Of a DNA stretch of 64,000 bases, positions 55,176 to 64,000 are shown piece after piece. Below the pieces are notes generated by a model. That model did no database searches. It was not told the DNA's origin and worked only from the letters and a program-made list of their open reading frames with translations. The first letter of the stretch is position 1. Each line of letters starts with the position of its first letter. Position numbers and translations under genes: made by a program. Origin of the DNA: a virus; IMG/VR virus record IMGVR_UViG_3300049215_000802, positions 14,533 to 78,532 of that record, one strand, 5' to 3'.

Positions 55176-56220
55176 TCAATCCCGAAACCGCATCCGCCAA
55201 TCCCGATCCGGGTCCGTCGCCGCGATCACCGCCGACACAGCGGGGCCAGTCGAGGACTTGGCCGCCTCGACCAGGAGCGCGACCGAGCTGAGAAAGTCGT
55301 CGTGTCCGCTCGTCTCCGGGACGTAGAAGCGCATCTGCCGGTTACCGGTCACTTCGCGGCGGGCGCATTCCACCTCGTGCCACCACTCCGTCGCCTCGCG
55401 ATCGTCGGCGCCGTGAGCGTACCAGCGCAACCTCCCGCCGCCCGCGGCGGCCAACAGCTGATAGCCCAGCTCGGACTTGCGCGACGCCGAGAACGCGATT
55501 GAATCGACCACGTCCTCGCCCAGCGACAGCGTCAGAAACTCGGCTAACGGCGCGCCGATGCCGGTTTTGTCGATCGCGAGCTTGCTCACGTGCCAGTCGT
55601 GGCGAAGTAGCGTCGCCAGCTCCGCCCGCTGTCCCTCGTGGCTCCGCCCGGTCCACCAGTACACCCCTTCCACCTCGACCACCGGCTCCCGATCGTCCAG
55701 CCCAACCTCCACCCACTCCACCCGCCCGATCGTCAGCACCGTCGAATCCCGCCGCGGCGCCCGCTCCCGTACCGCGGCATCACTCCCCGCCCGTCCCTCG
55801 TCCACCGACACTCGAGCCTCGCCTCCCGCCCCCCGTTCTCCATCCCCGGAAGCCCGAAACCCGATACCCGACACCCCGGTCGGTTCTTCGCTCGCCCCGG
55901 CCACGTCCAGCCCGGCCACCCAGGTCCCGTCGCCCTCGGCCCGCTCCCTCCGGCGGTGCGTCCCGCGCATCGCCTCGACCATCGCCCGGGTAAACAGCCC
56001 GGCCTCCTGGCCCAGCGGCCGCAGCTCAAACTGGGTCGTGAACATCGGGTGCTCCGGCCCGAGCCGCTCCCGCTCGCCTTCGACGAATCGGCCGTAGGCG
56101 GGATTGCTCTGGGCCACGACGTGCCAGGGATAGGCGAAATGCCGCCGCCGGCCGTCGCGCTTCTCCGCCTCGATCGCGACCTGAATCTGCTGGTGGAGCA
56201 AGGTCTGGTCGTCCCAGGCC
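55176..56220 (-). pseudogene. Terminase large subunit, C-terminal fragment lacking the ATPase N-terminus
   Basis: AWDDQTLL...WVAGLDVAG...IDKTGIGAP...HDDFLSS nuclease motifs; frame breaks where composition shifts at ~56220. Confidence 0.8.
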
Positions 56221-56429: not shown

Positions 56430-56717
56430 ATGTTTCATCGTGTGCCAAATCAAGCAGAAGTGGGGGAGATCGACTCAACCGTTACTAGTAAGGGCCAGAT
56501 CACAATCCCAGTTTCCGTGCGCCGACAGCTAGGCATCGATCCGGGAGACAAGCTGACCTTTGCCGTTGCAAAGAGTGGAGAAGTTAATCTCAGAACCACG
56601 CGTTACCCTACAGTTGCCTCAGTCCGCGGCGCAGCAGGTGCTCTGAAAACACCGCTCACTTGGCAGGAAGTTCGCCAGATCGCCCGCGAGGATAAGTTGA
56701 AAGCGGGGAAACTATAA
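56430..56717 (+). CDS. vapB: AbrB/MazE/SpoVT-family antitoxin
   Basis: STVTSKGQITIPVSVRRQLGIDPGDKL. Confidence 0.9.
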   Translation: MFHRVPNQAEVGEIDSTVTSKGQITIPVSVRRQLGIDPGDKLTFAVAKSGEVNLRTTRYPTVASVRGAAGALKTPLTWQEVRQIAREDKLKAGKL

Positions 56718-56721
56718 GACT

Positions 56722-57156
56722 ATGGCTAATCCATTCGTTGACACCGATGTAATAATTCGACTATTGACTAATGATGATCCCGTCAAACAAGCAGAAGCGG
56801 CCCAGCTCTTTCAAGCAGTAGAAGACGGTGATCTTACTCTATCAGCTCCAGACACGGTCATCGCCGACGCAGTCTATGTACTTTCCTCTGTTCGGCTTTA
56901 CAACGTCCAGCGTCCACAGGTAAGGAGCTTGCTCCTCCCACTTCTTCGGCTACCTGGCTTTAATGTCGGTAACAAGCGTGCTGTAACTAGGGCGCTTGAC
57001 CTCTATTCTTCATCTACTCTCGACTTTTCTGACGCCCTAATTGTCGCCTCGATGCAACGGGCCAGTGCTGACAATCTGTACTCCTACGACACAGACTTTG
57101 ACACTATCGCTGGGCTTAAGCGACTTGAACCAAAGGAGGCAAGCAAGTCAGCTTGA
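56722..57156 (+). CDS. vapC: PIN-domain toxin
   Basis: FVDTDVIIRLL...DFSDALIVA...YSYDTDFD. Confidence 0.9.
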   Translation: MANPFVDTDVIIRLLTNDDPVKQAEAAQLFQAVEDGDLTLSAPDTVIADAVYVLSSVRLYNVQRPQVRSLLLPLLRLPGFNVGNKRAVTRALDLYSSSTLDFSDALIVASMQRASADNLYSYDTDFDTIAGLKRLEPKEASKSA

Positions 57157-58221: not shown

Positions 58222-59121
58222 GTGATAATTATCCATATGGATAGGCCCACCCCCGTTGGTCACGTAATGCAAATCGACTTAACTCAGACGAAACTACTGG
58301 AGCTCATCGGCCGACTCGGCGTAGCAGATATTCACCAGATTAACGACTGCTATTTCGCTCAAGGTTCATGGAAGACGACCCACACACGACATATTCGGCC
58401 CCTTGAGAGGGACGGCTATTTGGAACACACCAACATTTGGCGAACAGATCTCTGGACCAGTCACCAGAAACGAGCTGCTGGCAGCCCCCGCTACGGTTAC
58501 AAACTATCCACCCAGGGTTATCGATATCTTGTCCGAACTGGGATATCGCGGGCCGATCTGATTCTGCCATCCGACAACCAAGGCAGCGCTCACACTCTCC
58601 AAGCCAACGACCTGATTGTCTTTGCTCACAGACTTATTCGACACTATCCCCACCTTCATCTGCAGTTTCGTAGCGAAAAGATACTGCGACGAATGAAGGT
58701 AGACGGCGTCATCCCAGACGCCTGGCTGAAGATCTGGCAGTCGCCAGCACGAAATGGGGCTTTCGCGCTTGAGCGAGACAAGGAGACGATTCCTCTCACT
58801 GAAAGTCCTTATGCCCCATCTTATCGATCGATCCGCCATCGAATCGAAGCCTATCTGCAACTGATGAACTCGCCACGGTACTCTGCCGCCTTTGGTACCG
58901 TCAGTCTTCTGTCGGTTTGGGTTTGCAATACCGAGAAACGCCAGAATGTCCTCGCCCAACTCGCGAAAAAGCTGTTGGAGGAAACTGGCCGTCGAGACCT
59001 TAACGCCCGATTCTATTTTGGTTTACGAACCGATGATCCTGATGTCTTCTTCTTTGCTAAGCGTTGGCTCCAACCAGGAGGGGAGGTGGTTTCGCTACTA
59101 CCCGAGCGATGGCGCGACTAA
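58222..59121 (+). CDS. Replication-relaxation family protein
   Basis: N-terminal wHTH, HTLQANDL, PDAWL, ALERDKET motifs. Confidence 0.75.
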   Translation: MIIIHMDRPTPVGHVMQIDLTQTKLLELIGRLGVADIHQINDCYFAQGSWKTTHTRHIRPLERDGYLEHTNIWRTDLWTSHQKRAAGSPRYGYKLSTQGYRYLVRTGISRADLILPSDNQGSAHTLQANDLIVFAHRLIRHYPHLHLQFRSEKILRRMKVDGVIPDAWLKIWQSPARNGAFALERDKETIPLTESPYAPSYRSIRHRIEAYLQLMNSPRYSAAFGTVSLLSVWVCNTEKRQNVLAQLAKKLLEETGRRDLNARFYFGLRTDDPDVFFFAKRWLQPGGEVVSLLPERWRD

Positions 59122-60515
59122 AGGTTCGGCTGGGGCGGATCTCCCACTCAAACCTGATCCCTGGGATTCCTCTTCTAAACCCTTCTGGTTGGCTCCACCA
59201 TTATCTGGAATTGGACGAGCGAGCGGTCAAATCGATGTGGCACTGCCTGGGTGCCCCCGGCAAAGGCAAAACAAAACTACTGGAAAGCGTTTGGCATCAA
59301 CTATTCGCCCAAAGACAGGCAGTCAGCTATGTCGATCCACGGGGCGGAGCATTCTGGAATATCCTTCGCACTTTAAAGCATCAACGCTATTTTGACCGTC
59401 CCGATGCCTTCGAGAAGCTGATCGTGATCAATTTCAGCGCCCATCCACATTACCTCAAGATGAACATCCTCGACAACAGGTGGATCCATCAGGACGAGCT
59501 AATCCGTGTCATTATCGAGGCGCTAAAGCGAGCGTTTCCCGAGCTTCACGAGGACGTGGCTCAGACTGGCACCTCGGTCTTTGACCAACTCATCGATGCA
59601 GGACTACGAGTGCTCTATGCTAACCGGCTGCCAATCTACTATCTCTACGAGCTTCTCTCAAATCCTTCTAGCCGCAGTGAGTGGTTGAAAGCCCCCGTAG
59701 ATGAAGTGGTGCGAAGCTTTTGGACGCAGCATTGGAACCGGTTGCGATTGGACCAGCAGTACGAGATCGGGGGGTCGGCGATTCGCCGTGCCTACTGGTT
59801 TGCCGTTACAGAGCGTTTGAAGTACTGTCTGGGGCAGAAGGAGAATATCCTACAGTTTCGCACGTTAATGGACCAGGGTGTCTCGTTTCTAATTAATCTC
59901 GGTGGCATTGTCTCAGAAAAGGACAAACAGCTTCTTGCCGGGCTATTGATGCACGGATTCGAGGTGGGGACTCTGAGCCGTCGACCTAACAGCAAGATCC
60001 TCCCACCGCACTTTCTCATCGTCGACGAGTTTGCTGAGATGGTCCGCCACAGCCCGCAGAGCCTGATGACCTTACTTGATATGGCCCGCCAACACGGGTT
60101 GTTCATCTATGCCGCGCACCAATCGTTCTCTCAGGCAGTCAATCCGCGATTGGTGGGAGCACTCCAGAACACGCACACTAGAATTACCTTCGGGGCCGGC
60201 CATCTCGATGCCAAGATTCAGGCTGGTTCGATCGGGCATTACGTGTCCAGATCGGAGGGTTACACGCCCAGTCCAATCGAGCAAGAGCAGGATTGGCAGC
60301 AACGCATAATGGATTTGCCAGATCAACACGCCTTGGTAAAAGTTGGAACAAATAAGGCTCTCGAGATCGACACGCTTCCTGTTCCCGAGTTCAATGAGGA
60401 CTTGCGCGACGTGATGGGAGAGTACTATCGCCGTTACTATTCGCACAAGGACAAGATCCAACTTACGACTACGCTCGTGGCACCCCCTACAGTCGGACTA
60501 GAGGATGATCAGTAA
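59109..60515 (+). CDS. VirD4/TraM-like coupling-protein ATPase
   Basis: GAPGKGKT Walker A, FLIVDEFAE Walker B, ARQHGL...AHQ..SQ, ITFG; overlaps the relaxase stop. Confidence 0.8.
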   Translation: MARLKVRLGRISHSNLIPGIPLLNPSGWLHHYLELDERAVKSMWHCLGAPGKGKTKLLESVWHQLFAQRQAVSYVDPRGGAFWNILRTLKHQRYFDRPDAFEKLIVINFSAHPHYLKMNILDNRWIHQDELIRVIIEALKRAFPELHEDVAQTGTSVFDQLIDAGLRVLYANRLPIYYLYELLSNPSSRSEWLKAPVDEVVRSFWTQHWNRLRLDQQYEIGGSAIRRAYWFAVTERLKYCLGQKENILQFRTLMDQGVSFLINLGGIVSEKDKQLLAGLLMHGFEVGTLSRRPNSKILPPHFLIVDEFAEMVRHSPQSLMTLLDMARQHGLFIYAAHQSFSQAVNPRLVGALQNTHTRITFGAGHLDAKIQAGSIGHYVSRSEGYTPSPIEQEQDWQQRIMDLPDQHALVKVGTNKALEIDTLPVPEFNEDLRDVMGEYYRRYYSHKDKIQLTTTLVAPPTVGLEDDQ

Positions 60516-60578
60516 CATTGCTCCAGCACTCAGAAGCTGACTTCGCCACAAAAAGCCCCCTTTTGCTAGTGGCACCCC

Positions 60579-60959
60579 ATGGGGTACAATCGCTCAAGCT
60601 ACCTAATGATCATAACTCTGATTGGTGAACGACCTATAAGCTGGAACAAGGTAAATGGCCGTGCGCACTGGTCGGTTCGGCGAGGAGAAACAGACCGCGT
60701 CCATGAACTTGTCCGGGATGCCTTAGCTAAGCTCAATCCACGGCGCTTGACTGGTCCGGTGAGCATTCGAATTACTGTGTACTTTAAAGATCGGCCGCTT
60801 GACAGTGACAATGTTTGCGATAAGCCTTATATCGACGCGTTGAAGGGTGTCATCATACCTGATGATCACTTCGGCATCGTTTGGGAAGCCACGACTTGCA
60901 GTCGAATCGACAAAAAGAACCCGAGACTTGAAATCAAGGTAGAGGAGATCGCCGCGTAA
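60579..60959 (+). CDS. rusA: RusA-like Holliday junction resolvase
   Basis: LDSDNV..K..IDAL.G..IPDD motif, NPRLEI end. Confidence 0.8.
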   Translation: MGYNRSSYLMIITLIGERPISWNKVNGRAHWSVRRGETDRVHELVRDALAKLNPRRLTGPVSIRITVYFKDRPLDSDNVCDKPYIDALKGVIIPDDHFGIVWEATTCSRIDKKNPRLEIKVEEIAA

Positions 60960-61116: not shown

Positions 61117-61749
61117 GTGATCACTGGAAACGCCGCGCTTGATCCTCGCACGGCTCGATTGCAAATGGAGGAGAGGCTGGCAACTTTGCCTCTCCGATTT
61201 CTGCCTAATCGTGCCCGAAGTTGGGAGAACGCAGCGTTCCCAAACATGGCGGCAATCTATTGGAACCTGGCTCGCTCGTGCGTCGTTCCAGAACAGGATG
61301 TGTTTGCCGGGGCGGTGGCTGCGTTGATGGACCAGGGGAACAATCCTGCTGTTGTTGCTCGAGCCTCAAGAGCCTATCCAGCACTTGTTCGCCAGCATCA
61401 TTTCTACCTGATGCTAAGAGAACACTACCCAATAGTCGTCCGCTCGGAAGAACTTGACCTGAATGGTGTAGATCTGTTGATCGTCGAACAGGGGCGAGCG
61501 TATGGAATAGCGCTATCGGTCGAGACAGAGGCGGCACACTCATGGCAGCGGGTCAAGCAGCGTCGTCATCCCGAATCGCCCGAACGCCTACCGGTGCTGT
61601 ATTTGTACGCCAAGCGAAGTGAGTACCGAATAGGCAACTTCTGGCTTCATCATCCAGATCAGTGGAAGCTGGTTCGAGACTGGATGAATCGGCTGCGACA
61701 GGGCGAGGATTGGATCACGGCTAGCGAGCTTCGATATGCACTGCAATAG
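61117..61749 (+). CDS. TaqI-like PD-(D/E)XK restriction-endonuclease-fold protein
   Basis: ARASRAYPALVRQHHF...EELDLNGVDLLI...YGIAL matches my recollection of TaqI (ARLYRT..SIWTQFHF...PELDAQGIDALI...GIQIK); no cognate methylase nearby. Confidence 0.6.
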   Translation: MITGNAALDPRTARLQMEERLATLPLRFLPNRARSWENAAFPNMAAIYWNLARSCVVPEQDVFAGAVAALMDQGNNPAVVARASRAYPALVRQHHFYLMLREHYPIVVRSEELDLNGVDLLIVEQGRAYGIALSVETEAAHSWQRVKQRRHPESPERLPVLYLYAKRSEYRIGNFWLHHPDQWKLVRDWMNRLRQGEDWITASELRYALQ

Positions 61750-61867
61750 GACGTATTTGTAGTGCTGTGTCAGTTCATCGGCCGATGATAATGTCAAGTA
61801 ATGTTTCAGTGCATTCCAACGTATGGCTGGACTGCTCAGAAGTCGCGTTCTTACTGTGTGAGGGCGG

Positions 61868-62797
61868 GTGCAAACTGAATCGCTTCAGTTAAATTTCTTC
61901 CCTATCGCCTTGCCGGTTGGCCCTCTCCCATTTCTTACACGCACCTTGACTCAGAATGAAAAGTTGTGTGCAGGGGAACTCAGTTGGTCTGCTCCAGCCA
62001 TAGATCATCCTAGCCAGCCCACTAAGGCCGTATTGATTGGCACTGCTCCGGCTGACCTAAGAAGCTACACTACCGAACTCGTCCACGCTAACACAGCAAG
62101 CCCTTATGTCGTGAAATTGTTGTTGCAAGAATCGCTGGCAGCTGCCCTTGAGCGATTGGGACGCAAAGTCGTGCATGAGCGGGTTGGCCTCCTCTGCTAT
62201 CGGCCCGATGAGGTGGTAAGCGAGGGCGTGCCTGATCTAGTAGTAATGCATCGAGGCGTAGATATCAGAGTGGATCACTTCACAGCACAAGGTCGGCGGC
62301 TATTCGGATTCTTCATTACGACCAGAGTGCGCATGGCGTTTTCTAAACAAGTGCAAAGGGATCCCAGGTTGGTACGTGCGGCGCTGCAAGAGAGAGTCAC
62401 CGTTGAGCGCGACGGCCGCTTCGTATCGGCCGTTTTAGTCGCTGAAGGAAGGTCTGCGACACAAATTCGAGTTGCGGTGGACGACCAAATAATCGACTTG
62501 CCGCGGCCAGATATTCAGATTCCGGCAAGCCAATCAGTGTTATCGCACTACTGTGCATTGATTGGCGATCCTGAGGCAGCCACCCGAATACGAAGAGCGC
62601 TGCAGGTCGCCAGCTACCGATCGCGGCGCGACGGTCAACGGAATCGACGCTGGATCTCTGACCAGCTCGGGTATGTACGAAATTGGCTCAATTCCATTTC
62701 AACATATGAGAGATTCGCTTTGCAGTGGCCTCATAGCGACATCCAGTACTTTCTTCGAACACAGCCTCTTGAGGTTTACGCACGAGGTTCGCCGTGA
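61868..62797 (+). CDS. Argonaute N-lobe protein (N-L1-PAZ*-L2-like), partner of a split pAgo
   Basis: QLNFFPI N-terminus as in long pAgos, RGVDIRV...GFFITTRVR L1-like strands, short beta-rich PAZ*-like segment; stop overlaps the pAgo start (GTGA). Confidence 0.65.
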   Translation: MQTESLQLNFFPIALPVGPLPFLTRTLTQNEKLCAGELSWSAPAIDHPSQPTKAVLIGTAPADLRSYTTELVHANTASPYVVKLLLQESLAAALERLGRKVVHERVGLLCYRPDEVVSEGVPDLVVMHRGVDIRVDHFTAQGRRLFGFFITTRVRMAFSKQVQRDPRLVRAALQERVTVERDGRFVSAVLVAEGRSATQIRVAVDDQIIDLPRPDIQIPASQSVLSHYCALIGDPEAATRIRRALQVASYRSRRDGQRNRRWISDQLGYVRNWLNSISTYERFALQWPHSDIQYFLRTQPLEVYARGSP

Positions 62798-64000
62798 TTC
62801 AGCCGGCATTCACCTATCAGCGTCTTCCGCGCCCAAGCTACCTCTTTGCCAACGATCAAAGATTCGCGAGTGCACTTTCTGGACTTCGAGTAGCCGGCCC
62901 ATACAGTGTCGGTGACTGCCCAAAGGAACCACGGATTCTTTTTGTCTTTCCAGACGAACTTCGAGACAAGGCCAACCAACTATTCCTTGCCCTGAAGAAC
63001 GGGGTTGGACCGTTTAGAGGTACGGAGAGCCTATTGCGTGTTCAGTTATCGGCTGGAGCTGTCAAAAGACTTCAACCTTTTTCAGTACAAAACATGCCCC
63101 ATGATCATGCGGCTACTGCATATCGATCGGCAATTGAGAAGTACCTCGCTACCAACCACCTGGACATCGACCTTGCACTTGTTATTCACAAAAAGACAGA
63201 AAGAACAGACCAAACTGGTAATCCCTATTTGACCAGTAAGTTTCCCTTGTTAGTCCGGAACATTCCAACCCAAGTGGTAACTGAGGAGCTTCTGGAGAGA
63301 GCCGAGACTTTTCAGTGGTCAGTTGCAAACATAGCGCTTGCTATGTTTGCAAAGATGGGTGGCCAACCTTGGGCAGTGGAATCAGGGCTAAGTGATGACA
63401 CGTTGGTCGTGGGAATCAATCGGGCGACTGTTGGTCAATCACGGCTGTATGCGTTTGCCAGTATTTTCGCGCATAACGGAACTTATCTAGGCACAACGCT
63501 GTCCAAGCCTGCCAACGATCGCGCTACCTATCTGCAAGCATTGCGGTCGACGGTTACCGATTCATTGACCGAATGGCGAGATCGGTTTGGAACTCCAGTT
63601 AATCTCGTACTCCACATGCGGAAGGAGGCTAGCAAGGAAGAGCTTGAGGTAATTGAGACGTGTATTCGAAGCGTGAGCACTGATATTGTACGGGCGCATG
63701 TCGCGCTTAGGCTCGCCCCTGGCGACTATATGGCGATAATTGATCCACAGAATGAGACTGGCACGCCGCCATTAGGTACCTATATCCAGTTAGGGTCGCA
63801 TCGTGCCATGCTGCAAATCTCGGGACAAGACCCAGACGGCTCCGCCTTTGGCAGGATCGTTAACTCGGGACCGTGGCACATTAATCGGTTGTACGAGTCG
63901 GCAAACGCTCCGCCACTCGATGTTCTCTGCACCCATATTCTGGCACTCTCGGCAATGAATTGGGCGAGCTTAAATGCTGAAGCATCGCCGGTGACCATAA
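62794..64000 (+). CDS. Prokaryotic Argonaute MID-PIWI protein, catalytically inactive (partial, no stop in window; missed by ORF track)
   Basis: Open frame of 402 codons: LF...GL...GPY; MID NPYLTSK, IPTQVV, NIALAMFAKMGGQPW; PIWI VVGIN, LVLHMRK, PPLGTY, LSAMNWAS...PVTI. Confidence 0.93.
   Translation, partial: MIQPAFTYQRLPRPSYLFANDQRFASALSGLRVAGPYSVGDCPKEPRILFVFPDELRDKANQLFLALKNGVGPFRGTESLLRVQLSAGAVKRLQPFSVQNMPHDHAATAYRSAIEKYLATNHLDIDLALVIHKKTERTDQTGNPYLTSKFPLLVRNIPTQVVTEELLERAETFQWSVANIALAMFAKMGGQPWAVESGLSDDTLVVGINRATVGQSRLYAFASIFAHNGTYLGTTLSKPANDRATYLQALRSTVTDSLTEWRDRFGTPVNLVLHMRKEASKEELEVIETCIRSVSTDIVRAHVALRLAPGDYMAIIDPQNETGTPPLGTYIQLGSHRAMLQISGQDPDGSAFGRIVNSGPWHINRLYESANAPPLDVLCTHILALSAMNWASLNAEASPVTI

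Follow-up and report, generated by a model that had tools for sequence, protein, structure and literature searches.

A predicted split long-B Argonaute-SIR2 cassette carried on a mobile island

Pairs of long-B prokaryotic Argonautes (pAgos) and SIR2 proteins were named BPAS and tested by Song et al. 2023 (PMC10620215). In GbBPAS, Sir2_2 is toxic on its own and is held in check by the pAgo, with which it co-purifies; a plasmid with a CloDF13 origin sets off a loss of NAD+ for which the catalytic Asn is needed (PMC10620215). Passages of Manakova et al. 2024 (PMC10954474) describe "truncated" long-B pAgos of bacteria and archaea whose N-terminal part is encoded upstream; according to these passages, the splitting arose several times, split and single-chain long-B pAgos both keep an immediately downstream gene, and Sir2-like proteins similar to ThsA make up one of two main classes of the downstream partner. 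Here we describe a locus of this kind in an 82,888-bp "provirus" record of IMG/VR (IMGVR_UViG_3300049215_000802). The window, which is the whole 64,000-nucleotide stretch of DNA analysed, spans bases 14533-78532 of this record; genes beyond its right edge are read from the final 12.9 kb of the parent record (L003; window coordinate = L003 coordinate + 55467). The locus encodes an Argonaute N-terminal half (N-half), a MID-PIWI Argonaute, and a SIR2_2 protein, which very probably make up a three-gene, translationally coupled abortive-infection cassette that is a split version of the long-B pAgo-SIR2 system (BPAS).

As in GbBPAS, a pAgo of the long-B type, predicted to be inactive, is directly followed by a separately encoded SIR2_2 protein in which the NADase Asn and His known from ThsA are present; the catalytic Asn was taken as the equivalent of ThsA N112 and GbbAgaS N155. 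The locus differs in that the pAgo is divided into two coupled genes (309 and 437 amino acids, aa), whereas GbBPAS has one chain of ~630-760 aa. The second close comparison is fAfAgo (AfAgo-N + AfAgo + Af1317; PDB 8pvv, 8ok9), which likewise pairs an upstream N-L1-L2 protein with a MID-PIWI protein; the two make up a bilobed Argonaute that is inactive, as is predicted here, and an effector gene lies immediately downstream. However, the AfAgo effector is an alpha-helical/transmembrane protein, not SIR2, AfAgo-N (~230 aa) has no PAZ while the 309-aa protein probably has a PAZ* remnant, and the split clade of the window is a separate bacterial lineage. Finally, SPARSA (GsSir2/Ago; PDB 8in8) shares the plan predicted here of a MID-PIWI sensor, a partner resembling the N-lobe, and an NADase of the SIR2 superfamily as output, but there the Sir2 is fused to APAZ, lies upstream, and belongs to another Sir2 family, and the pAgo is of the short clade.

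The first-pass annotation of the window, made from the sequence alone, had called a split pAgo with a TaqI-fold partner on a relaxase-bearing island an architecture that it did not recognise as characterised. This does not stand: BPAS has been tested (PMC10620215), and, as far as the passages of PMC10954474 go, split long-B pAgos and their Sir2-like partners, and so the combination found here, are already catalogued computationally in that text. Among the papers covered by a search for BPAS work since 2023, none studies a split form or presents a pAgo-SIR2_2 structure, and no pAgo-SIR2_2 complex structure appeared in the PDB searches of this analysis.

Two Argonaute halves and a SIR2 gene

The first-pass annotation had read a MID-PIWI Argonaute in the open GTG frame that begins at 62794, and both the Pfam Piwi family (E 2.2e-12) and the PADLOC pAgo model PDLC02436 (E 8.6e-61, across the full 460-position profile) bear this out. 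The gene occupies 62794..64000 of the window (+ strand), which holds its first 402 codons; the remaining 107 nt lie beyond the edge in the parent record, where the open reading frame (ORF; L003:7327-8640) gives an extrapolated end at 64107 and a protein of 437 aa. The PADLOC pAgo_II "Class II" models align through their C-terminal halves only (1e-52, 2e-50), and the NCBIfam RsAgo model matches over positions 322-738 of 759. The closest solved relatives are RsAgo (2.7e-27, over its MID-PIWI part), EcAgo (2.8e-18), and AfAgo (5e-12), followed by weaker matches to the short SPARSA pAgo 8in8_C (3.4e-6) and to the long-A CpAgo (1e-6). By these profile comparisons, the protein is a long-B rather than a short or long-A pAgo; the assignment rests on the hidden Markov model (HMM) and PDB comparisons, since the tree described below holds no reference short or long-A pAgos. 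At 437 aa, the protein does have the length of a short pAgo, and the locus might be read as a short-pAgo system of the SPARSA type whose Sir2 and APAZ parts have come apart into two genes, one on either side of the pAgo. The closer match to long-B RsAgo than to the SPARSA pAgo argues against this, as does the alignment of the pAgo_II and RsAgo models through their C-terminal halves.

The guide-pocket motifs noted in the first pass are present and align with NPY..K, PTQ, and AK..G of RsAgo. The residues of the 5'-phosphate pocket (Y145, K149, Q160, and K187) are invariant among 15 relatives, full-length pAgos included. The catalytic positions that had been called degenerate (GIN, HMRK) are non-acidic across the family: N209 and R276 stand at the first and third Asp positions, which are never Asp or Glu in the same 15 relatives. 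The alignment thus confirms a PIWI domain that lacks the catalytic DEDX tetrad and is predicted to be inactive, with its 5'-phosphate guide pocket intact.

The gene directly upstream (61868..62797, +) starts with a GTG preceded by a Shine-Dalgarno-like GAGGG and encodes a stand-alone protein of 309 aa. It has no match in Pfam, PADLOC, or NCBIfam, and a word-indexed homology search recovered only the protein itself. Exhaustive searching with HMMER gave 25 cluster representatives; each is a stand-alone protein of ~300 aa or a fragment, and long pAgos are absent among them. The structure of the protein is more telling. Its AlphaFold2 model, made with an eight-sequence alignment of the neighbouring genes in related loci (predicted local distance difference test score, pLDDT, 88.9; predicted template modelling score, pTM, 0.81), has as top Foldseek matches in the PDB AfAgo-N (8pvv_C, 8olj; E 3e-8) and RsAgo (template modelling score, TM, 0.62 by query). 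VIA-align gives Z 16.7 to AfAgo-N 8pvv_C (224 of 229 residues aligned) and Z 15.3 to residues 19-325 of RsAgo 5awh (275 aligned). The alignment to RsAgo is ~50 residues longer than that to AfAgo-N, which has no PAZ, and suggests that the 309-aa protein has kept a remnant resembling PAZ*. The APAZ domains of SPARTA and SPARSA reach Z ~12, a resemblance that would suit the SPARSA-type reading; however, the protein is nearer to AfAgo-N and RsAgo (Z 15-17), and it is homologous to the N-terminal halves of single-chain pAgos. For the latter comparison, hhalign matched the profile of the N-half to that of the N-terminal parts of the closest single-chain relatives with a probability of 95.3 (E 2e-8), collinear over 256 columns.

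The two halves are also predicted to fit together. The N-half/MID-PIWI heterodimer model scores 0.81 by the interaction prediction score from aligned errors (ipSAE), against 0.01 for the best control; the heterodimer's mark is reached by 58 of 80 solved complexes and by 2 of 110 mismatched pairs. At least 87% of contacts recur across the three runs, and the partner pLDDT is no lower than 83. In the model, the first strand of the N-half (residues 5-9) pairs with PIWI residues 312-318, the PIWI interface spans 312-339, and the C-terminus of the N-half (300-308) contacts the N-terminus of the pAgo (2-9), as expected of a chain cut between L2 and MID. The two proteins are thus predicted to bind as a bilobed Argonaute like fAfAgo or RsAgo. 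Altogether, the fold, the hhalign comparison, and the predicted heterodimer agree with the first-pass proposal that the N-L1-(PAZ*)-L2 half needed to complete a long pAgo is the 309-aa protein, an AfAgo-N analogue and not an effector-APAZ fusion; the Argonaute N/L1/L2 fold, which had been set beforehand as the test of that proposal, was found.

The third gene starts 95 nt beyond the end of the window and was out of view in the first pass. Its extrapolated coordinates are 64095-65213 (+; L003:8628-9746; record 78627-79745). The 372-aa product is a SIR2_2 protein by Pfam (PF13289, 2.6e-13) and matches the PADLOC Argonaute-associated model Aga_SIR2 "Class II" (7.3e-57). It carries the motifs GAGAS, FTLNYD (N174), and KxHGS (H216); N174 and H216 are invariant in seven members of the SIR2_2 family and align with solved defence SIR2 proteins. 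Going by these motifs, the catalytic Asn and His of the NADase are intact, and we take this bAgaS-like predicted NADase to be the effector of the split pAgo. Reading a further 1.2 kb past the window thereby dissolves the supposed architecture of a split pAgo with a TaqI-fold effector. That the effector belongs to the SIR2 superfamily is again in keeping with a SPARSA-type system, but it is of the SIR2_2/Aga_SIR2 "Class II" type and lies downstream, as in BPAS.

The three genes are closely packed. The stop of the 309-aa gene overlaps the MID-PIWI start as GTGA, and the SIR2_2 ATG is preceded by GGAGGG and overlaps the pAgo stop by 13 nt; this layout indicates translational coupling of all three genes. 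The ORF layout given in the first pass, including the GTGA junction and a 118-nt gap between the 309-aa gene and the next gene upstream, agrees with the coordinates.

Conservation and relationships of the trio

The MID-PIWI pAgo has ~35 relatives of 395-443 aa at 44-60% identity. In seven contigs around such relatives (L004-L010; L-numbers up to L026 are our labels for contigs and genome loci compared with the window locus), the pAgo is immediately preceded by an N-half homolog (27-38% identity) and immediately followed by a SIR2_2 homolog (43-57% identity), with L005 cut by the contig end such that only the first SIR2 residues are visible. A scan of GTDB species genomes, with the MID-PIWI alignment as query, adds three split loci, one from Chthonomonadaceae (L014) and two from Fimbriimonadaceae (L015 and L023). 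The full trio of N-half, MID-PIWI, and SIR2 is present in eight loci (the window locus, L004, L006-L010, and L014); L005, L015, and L023 are contig-cut and retain all that the contig ends permit. In total, the split clade comprises 11 loci including that of the window, which come from metagenome-assembled genomes of Chloroflexota and Armatimonadota and from unassigned metagenome contigs. SIR2 stands directly 3' of the pAgo in all nine related split loci in which the downstream flank is present, as it does in the window locus.

The same scan returned 14 single-chain pAgos of ~600-712 aa, of which 13 are directly trailed by the same SIR2 family, the layout of BPAS; the single-chain locus L026 shows no SIR2 downstream. 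A maximum-likelihood tree was built from MID-PIWI regions, taking in the split pAgos with a full-length MID-PIWI match and leaving out reference short and long-A pAgos. In this tree, the ten split pAgos, that of the window included, form a single clade (support 100/99) with single-chain neighbours. The nearest relatives are single-chain pAgos of 620-760 aa, which also speaks against a SPARSA-type origin of the locus. Weighed with the points above, we consider that reading very unlikely, and membership in SPARSA itself was rejected: the upstream 309-aa protein is an N-lobe with no effector domain found by Pfam or PADLOC, and the SIR2 is separate and downstream. The split version of BPAS is the preferred reading of the locus.

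Several copies of the trio sit beside other defence genes. The neighbours include a type I restriction-modification (R-M) HsdR (L006), an MmeI/Eco57I-type enzyme with an HNH protein (L007), nucleotidyltransferase (NTase)/HEPN genes (L008), DUF1156/DUF499 DISARM-like genes (L009), and a BREX BrxL (L010).

A second and more distant group of short pAgos (~435 aa; L016:811-2520 and the proteins P0037 and P0038) shares 31-34% identity with the window pAgo and lies apart from the split clade in the tree. In L016, which is from Solirubrobacteraceae, no downstream homolog of SIR2 was detected. This group may represent an independent split with a different partner.

The upstream nuclease-fold gene and the mobile island

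The gene 118 nt upstream of the N-half (61117-61749, +) encodes a 210-aa protein that the first-pass annotation had labelled TaqI-like. A 194-aa form, covering 92%, is found in the protein collection, and no match was obtained in Pfam (E up to 0.1), PADLOC, PHROG, or NCBIfam. Its structure model (pLDDT 88.9) matches clusters of the AlphaFold database (AFDB) labelled "Restriction endonuclease" (TM 0.75, E 9.5e-11). The best PDB match by Foldseek is AvaII (E 4e-3), with none at E 0.001 or better, and an exhaustive VIA structural scan gives Z of at most 5.6, the top matches being mostly PD-(D/E)XK enzymes (Bax1, PspGI, Vsr, Hjc). TaqI is missing from both the Foldseek-PDB and the VIA lists. In the family alignment D119 is invariant, and the canonical (D/E)xK position reads S134-V-x-T137; the invariant residues comprise R92, Q93, H94, D114, D119, S134, T137, K147, R150, and H151. 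With no family match, sequence membership in the TaqI family was rejected. The label is not borne out, and the model suggests only a generic, weak PD-(D/E)XK-like fold.

The same annotation had put this protein forward as the guide-activated effector of the split pAgo. Its gene does lie on the same strand and close by, the C-terminal part of the protein has the weak PD-(D/E)XK-like fold, and nuclease effectors of long-B pAgos exist (BPAN). The distribution of the gene points elsewhere: no homolog was found by tblastn (best E 1.7) or HMM in any of the ten related split-pAgo loci, and three homologs at 64-69% identity occur with no pAgo nearby (L011:7001-7639, L012:7001-7612, L013:4957-5532). 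Moreover, the gene shows no translational coupling with the pAgo genes, the family has S-V-x-T at the (D/E)xK position, and the conserved SIR2 effector accounts for the output. The two findings that the first pass had named as telling against its own proposal, a lack of co-conservation with these pAgos and a different effector such as Sir2 downstream, are thus both made here, and we regard the 210-aa protein as a highly improbable effector. Its absence from the related pAgo loci and its pAgo-free homologs instead indicate that the gene belongs to the mobile island and lies outside the Argonaute system.

The setting of the pAgo-free homologs is in line with this assignment. In L011 and L012, the 210-aa homolog follows Replic_Relax and ~480-520-aa ATPase genes in the same order as in the window, although this Replic_Relax/ATPase backbone is just 27-30% identical to that of the window. 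The 210-aa family is unusually conserved (64-75% identity) compared with these adjoining backbone proteins. In L011, the 210-aa homolog (69%) is followed ~1 kb on by a resolvase 82% identical to the one 3' of the window cassette, and no cassette lies there.

A low-GC mobile island with Replic_Relax, a TraD-like ATPase, RusA, and a resolvase carries the cassette as cargo. The GC content falls from ~0.65-0.70 to ~0.52 near window position 56000 and stays low up to the end of the record, which places the cassette in a compositionally foreign island. On the high-GC side, an ORF at 55176-56201 (-) matches positions 137-260 of 285 of the terminase large-subunit family phrog_5909 (2.2e-7). Since this ORF ends at the GC drop, the island seems to abut or interrupt a prophage terminase gene. 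At the left island edge (56430-57156, +), a MazE/AbrB-type antitoxin (95 aa) is followed, 4 nt apart, by a PIN-domain toxin (144 aa) in a VapBC-like pair. The island backbone (58222-60959, +) consists of Replic_Relax (299 aa), an ATPase (483 aa) that overlaps it and weakly matches TrwB/TraD/TraG, and a RusA resolvase; the Replic_Relax-ATPase order recurs in L011 and L012 beside a large serine recombinase and a DUF2958 gene. The region 3' of SIR2_2 (L003:9958-12889) contains an orphan MazE-like ORF (90 aa), a 186-aa serine resolvase, and a 369-aa protein with no family, and a minus-strand PARP-like/PD-T4-9_A-like protein runs to the last base of the record. From the comparison with L011, the pAgo-SIR2 cassette and the MazE-like ORF appear to occupy a variable slot between two conserved island genes.

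This arrangement invites a different view of function, in which the cassette is mainly an addiction or competition module of the island, with SIR2 as toxin and the Argonaute as its restrainer, and not a host anti-phage defence. It would fit the behaviour of GbBPAS, whose SIR2 is toxic alone and suppressed by the pAgo, the VapBC-like pair carried on the same island, and the position of the cassette in the slot between the 210-aa gene and the resolvase, both of which L011 has (69% and 82%) with no cassette between them. Elsewhere, however, the trio is found inside ordinary defence islands (type I R-M, BREX BrxL, DISARM-like, MmeI-like), which suggests a general defence role, and addiction and defence are not mutually exclusive. 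We therefore think it unlikely that addiction or competition is the main function. A broader proposal, which we hold tentatively and find somewhat doubtful, is that the cassette is exchangeable slot cargo in Replic_Relax/TraD-like mobilisable islands, that this copy was inserted in a prophage terminase gene, and that it serves conflict between mobile elements. If this were true, it would act by keeping out competing plasmids or phages, by island addiction, or by both.

Proposed mechanism and significance

Under the preferred reading, that of a split BPAS acting by abortive infection, the 309-aa protein would supply the N-L1-(PAZ*)-L2 lobe, and the 437-aa protein would supply the inactive MID-PIWI lobe with its 5'-phosphate guide pocket. 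By analogy with GbBPAS (PMC10620215), the Argonaute heterodimer would keep SIR2 inactive in a complex, in which the N-half is expected to be an obligatory third subunit. The heterodimer may load small 5'-phosphorylated guides, probably RNA as in RsAgo. Pairing of the guide with invading plasmid or phage DNA would then release or activate SIR2, and the activated SIR2 would deplete NAD+, leading to arrest or death of the cell. The expected sequence of guide-directed recognition of an invader and NAD+ depletion is thus the one described for GbBPAS.

Several points weigh against this reading. The MID-PIWI identity is 22-27% to SIR2-linked single-chain relatives and at most 30% to any single-chain relative, which makes transfer of the mechanism from the tested GbBPAS an extrapolation. 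The guide type, the trigger, and the NADase activity are all carried over from relatives, and the pAgo-SIR2 complex is taken over from GbBPAS. In addition, the heterodimer score may partly reflect the prediction model's memory of the fAfAgo and RsAgo structures, and promoter and terminator scans around the operon gave chance-level results only.

In this locus, a split long-B pAgo and a predicted SIR2 NADase are found together in intact form, and the locus belongs to a distinct split clade. Its island context indicates that the pAgo-SIR2 cassette travels as mobile-island cargo. The compact three-protein format could suit biochemical or structural studies of SIR2 effector control by long-B pAgos, and the split heterotrimer of 1118 residues could reveal a coupling mechanism that differs from that of SPARSA.

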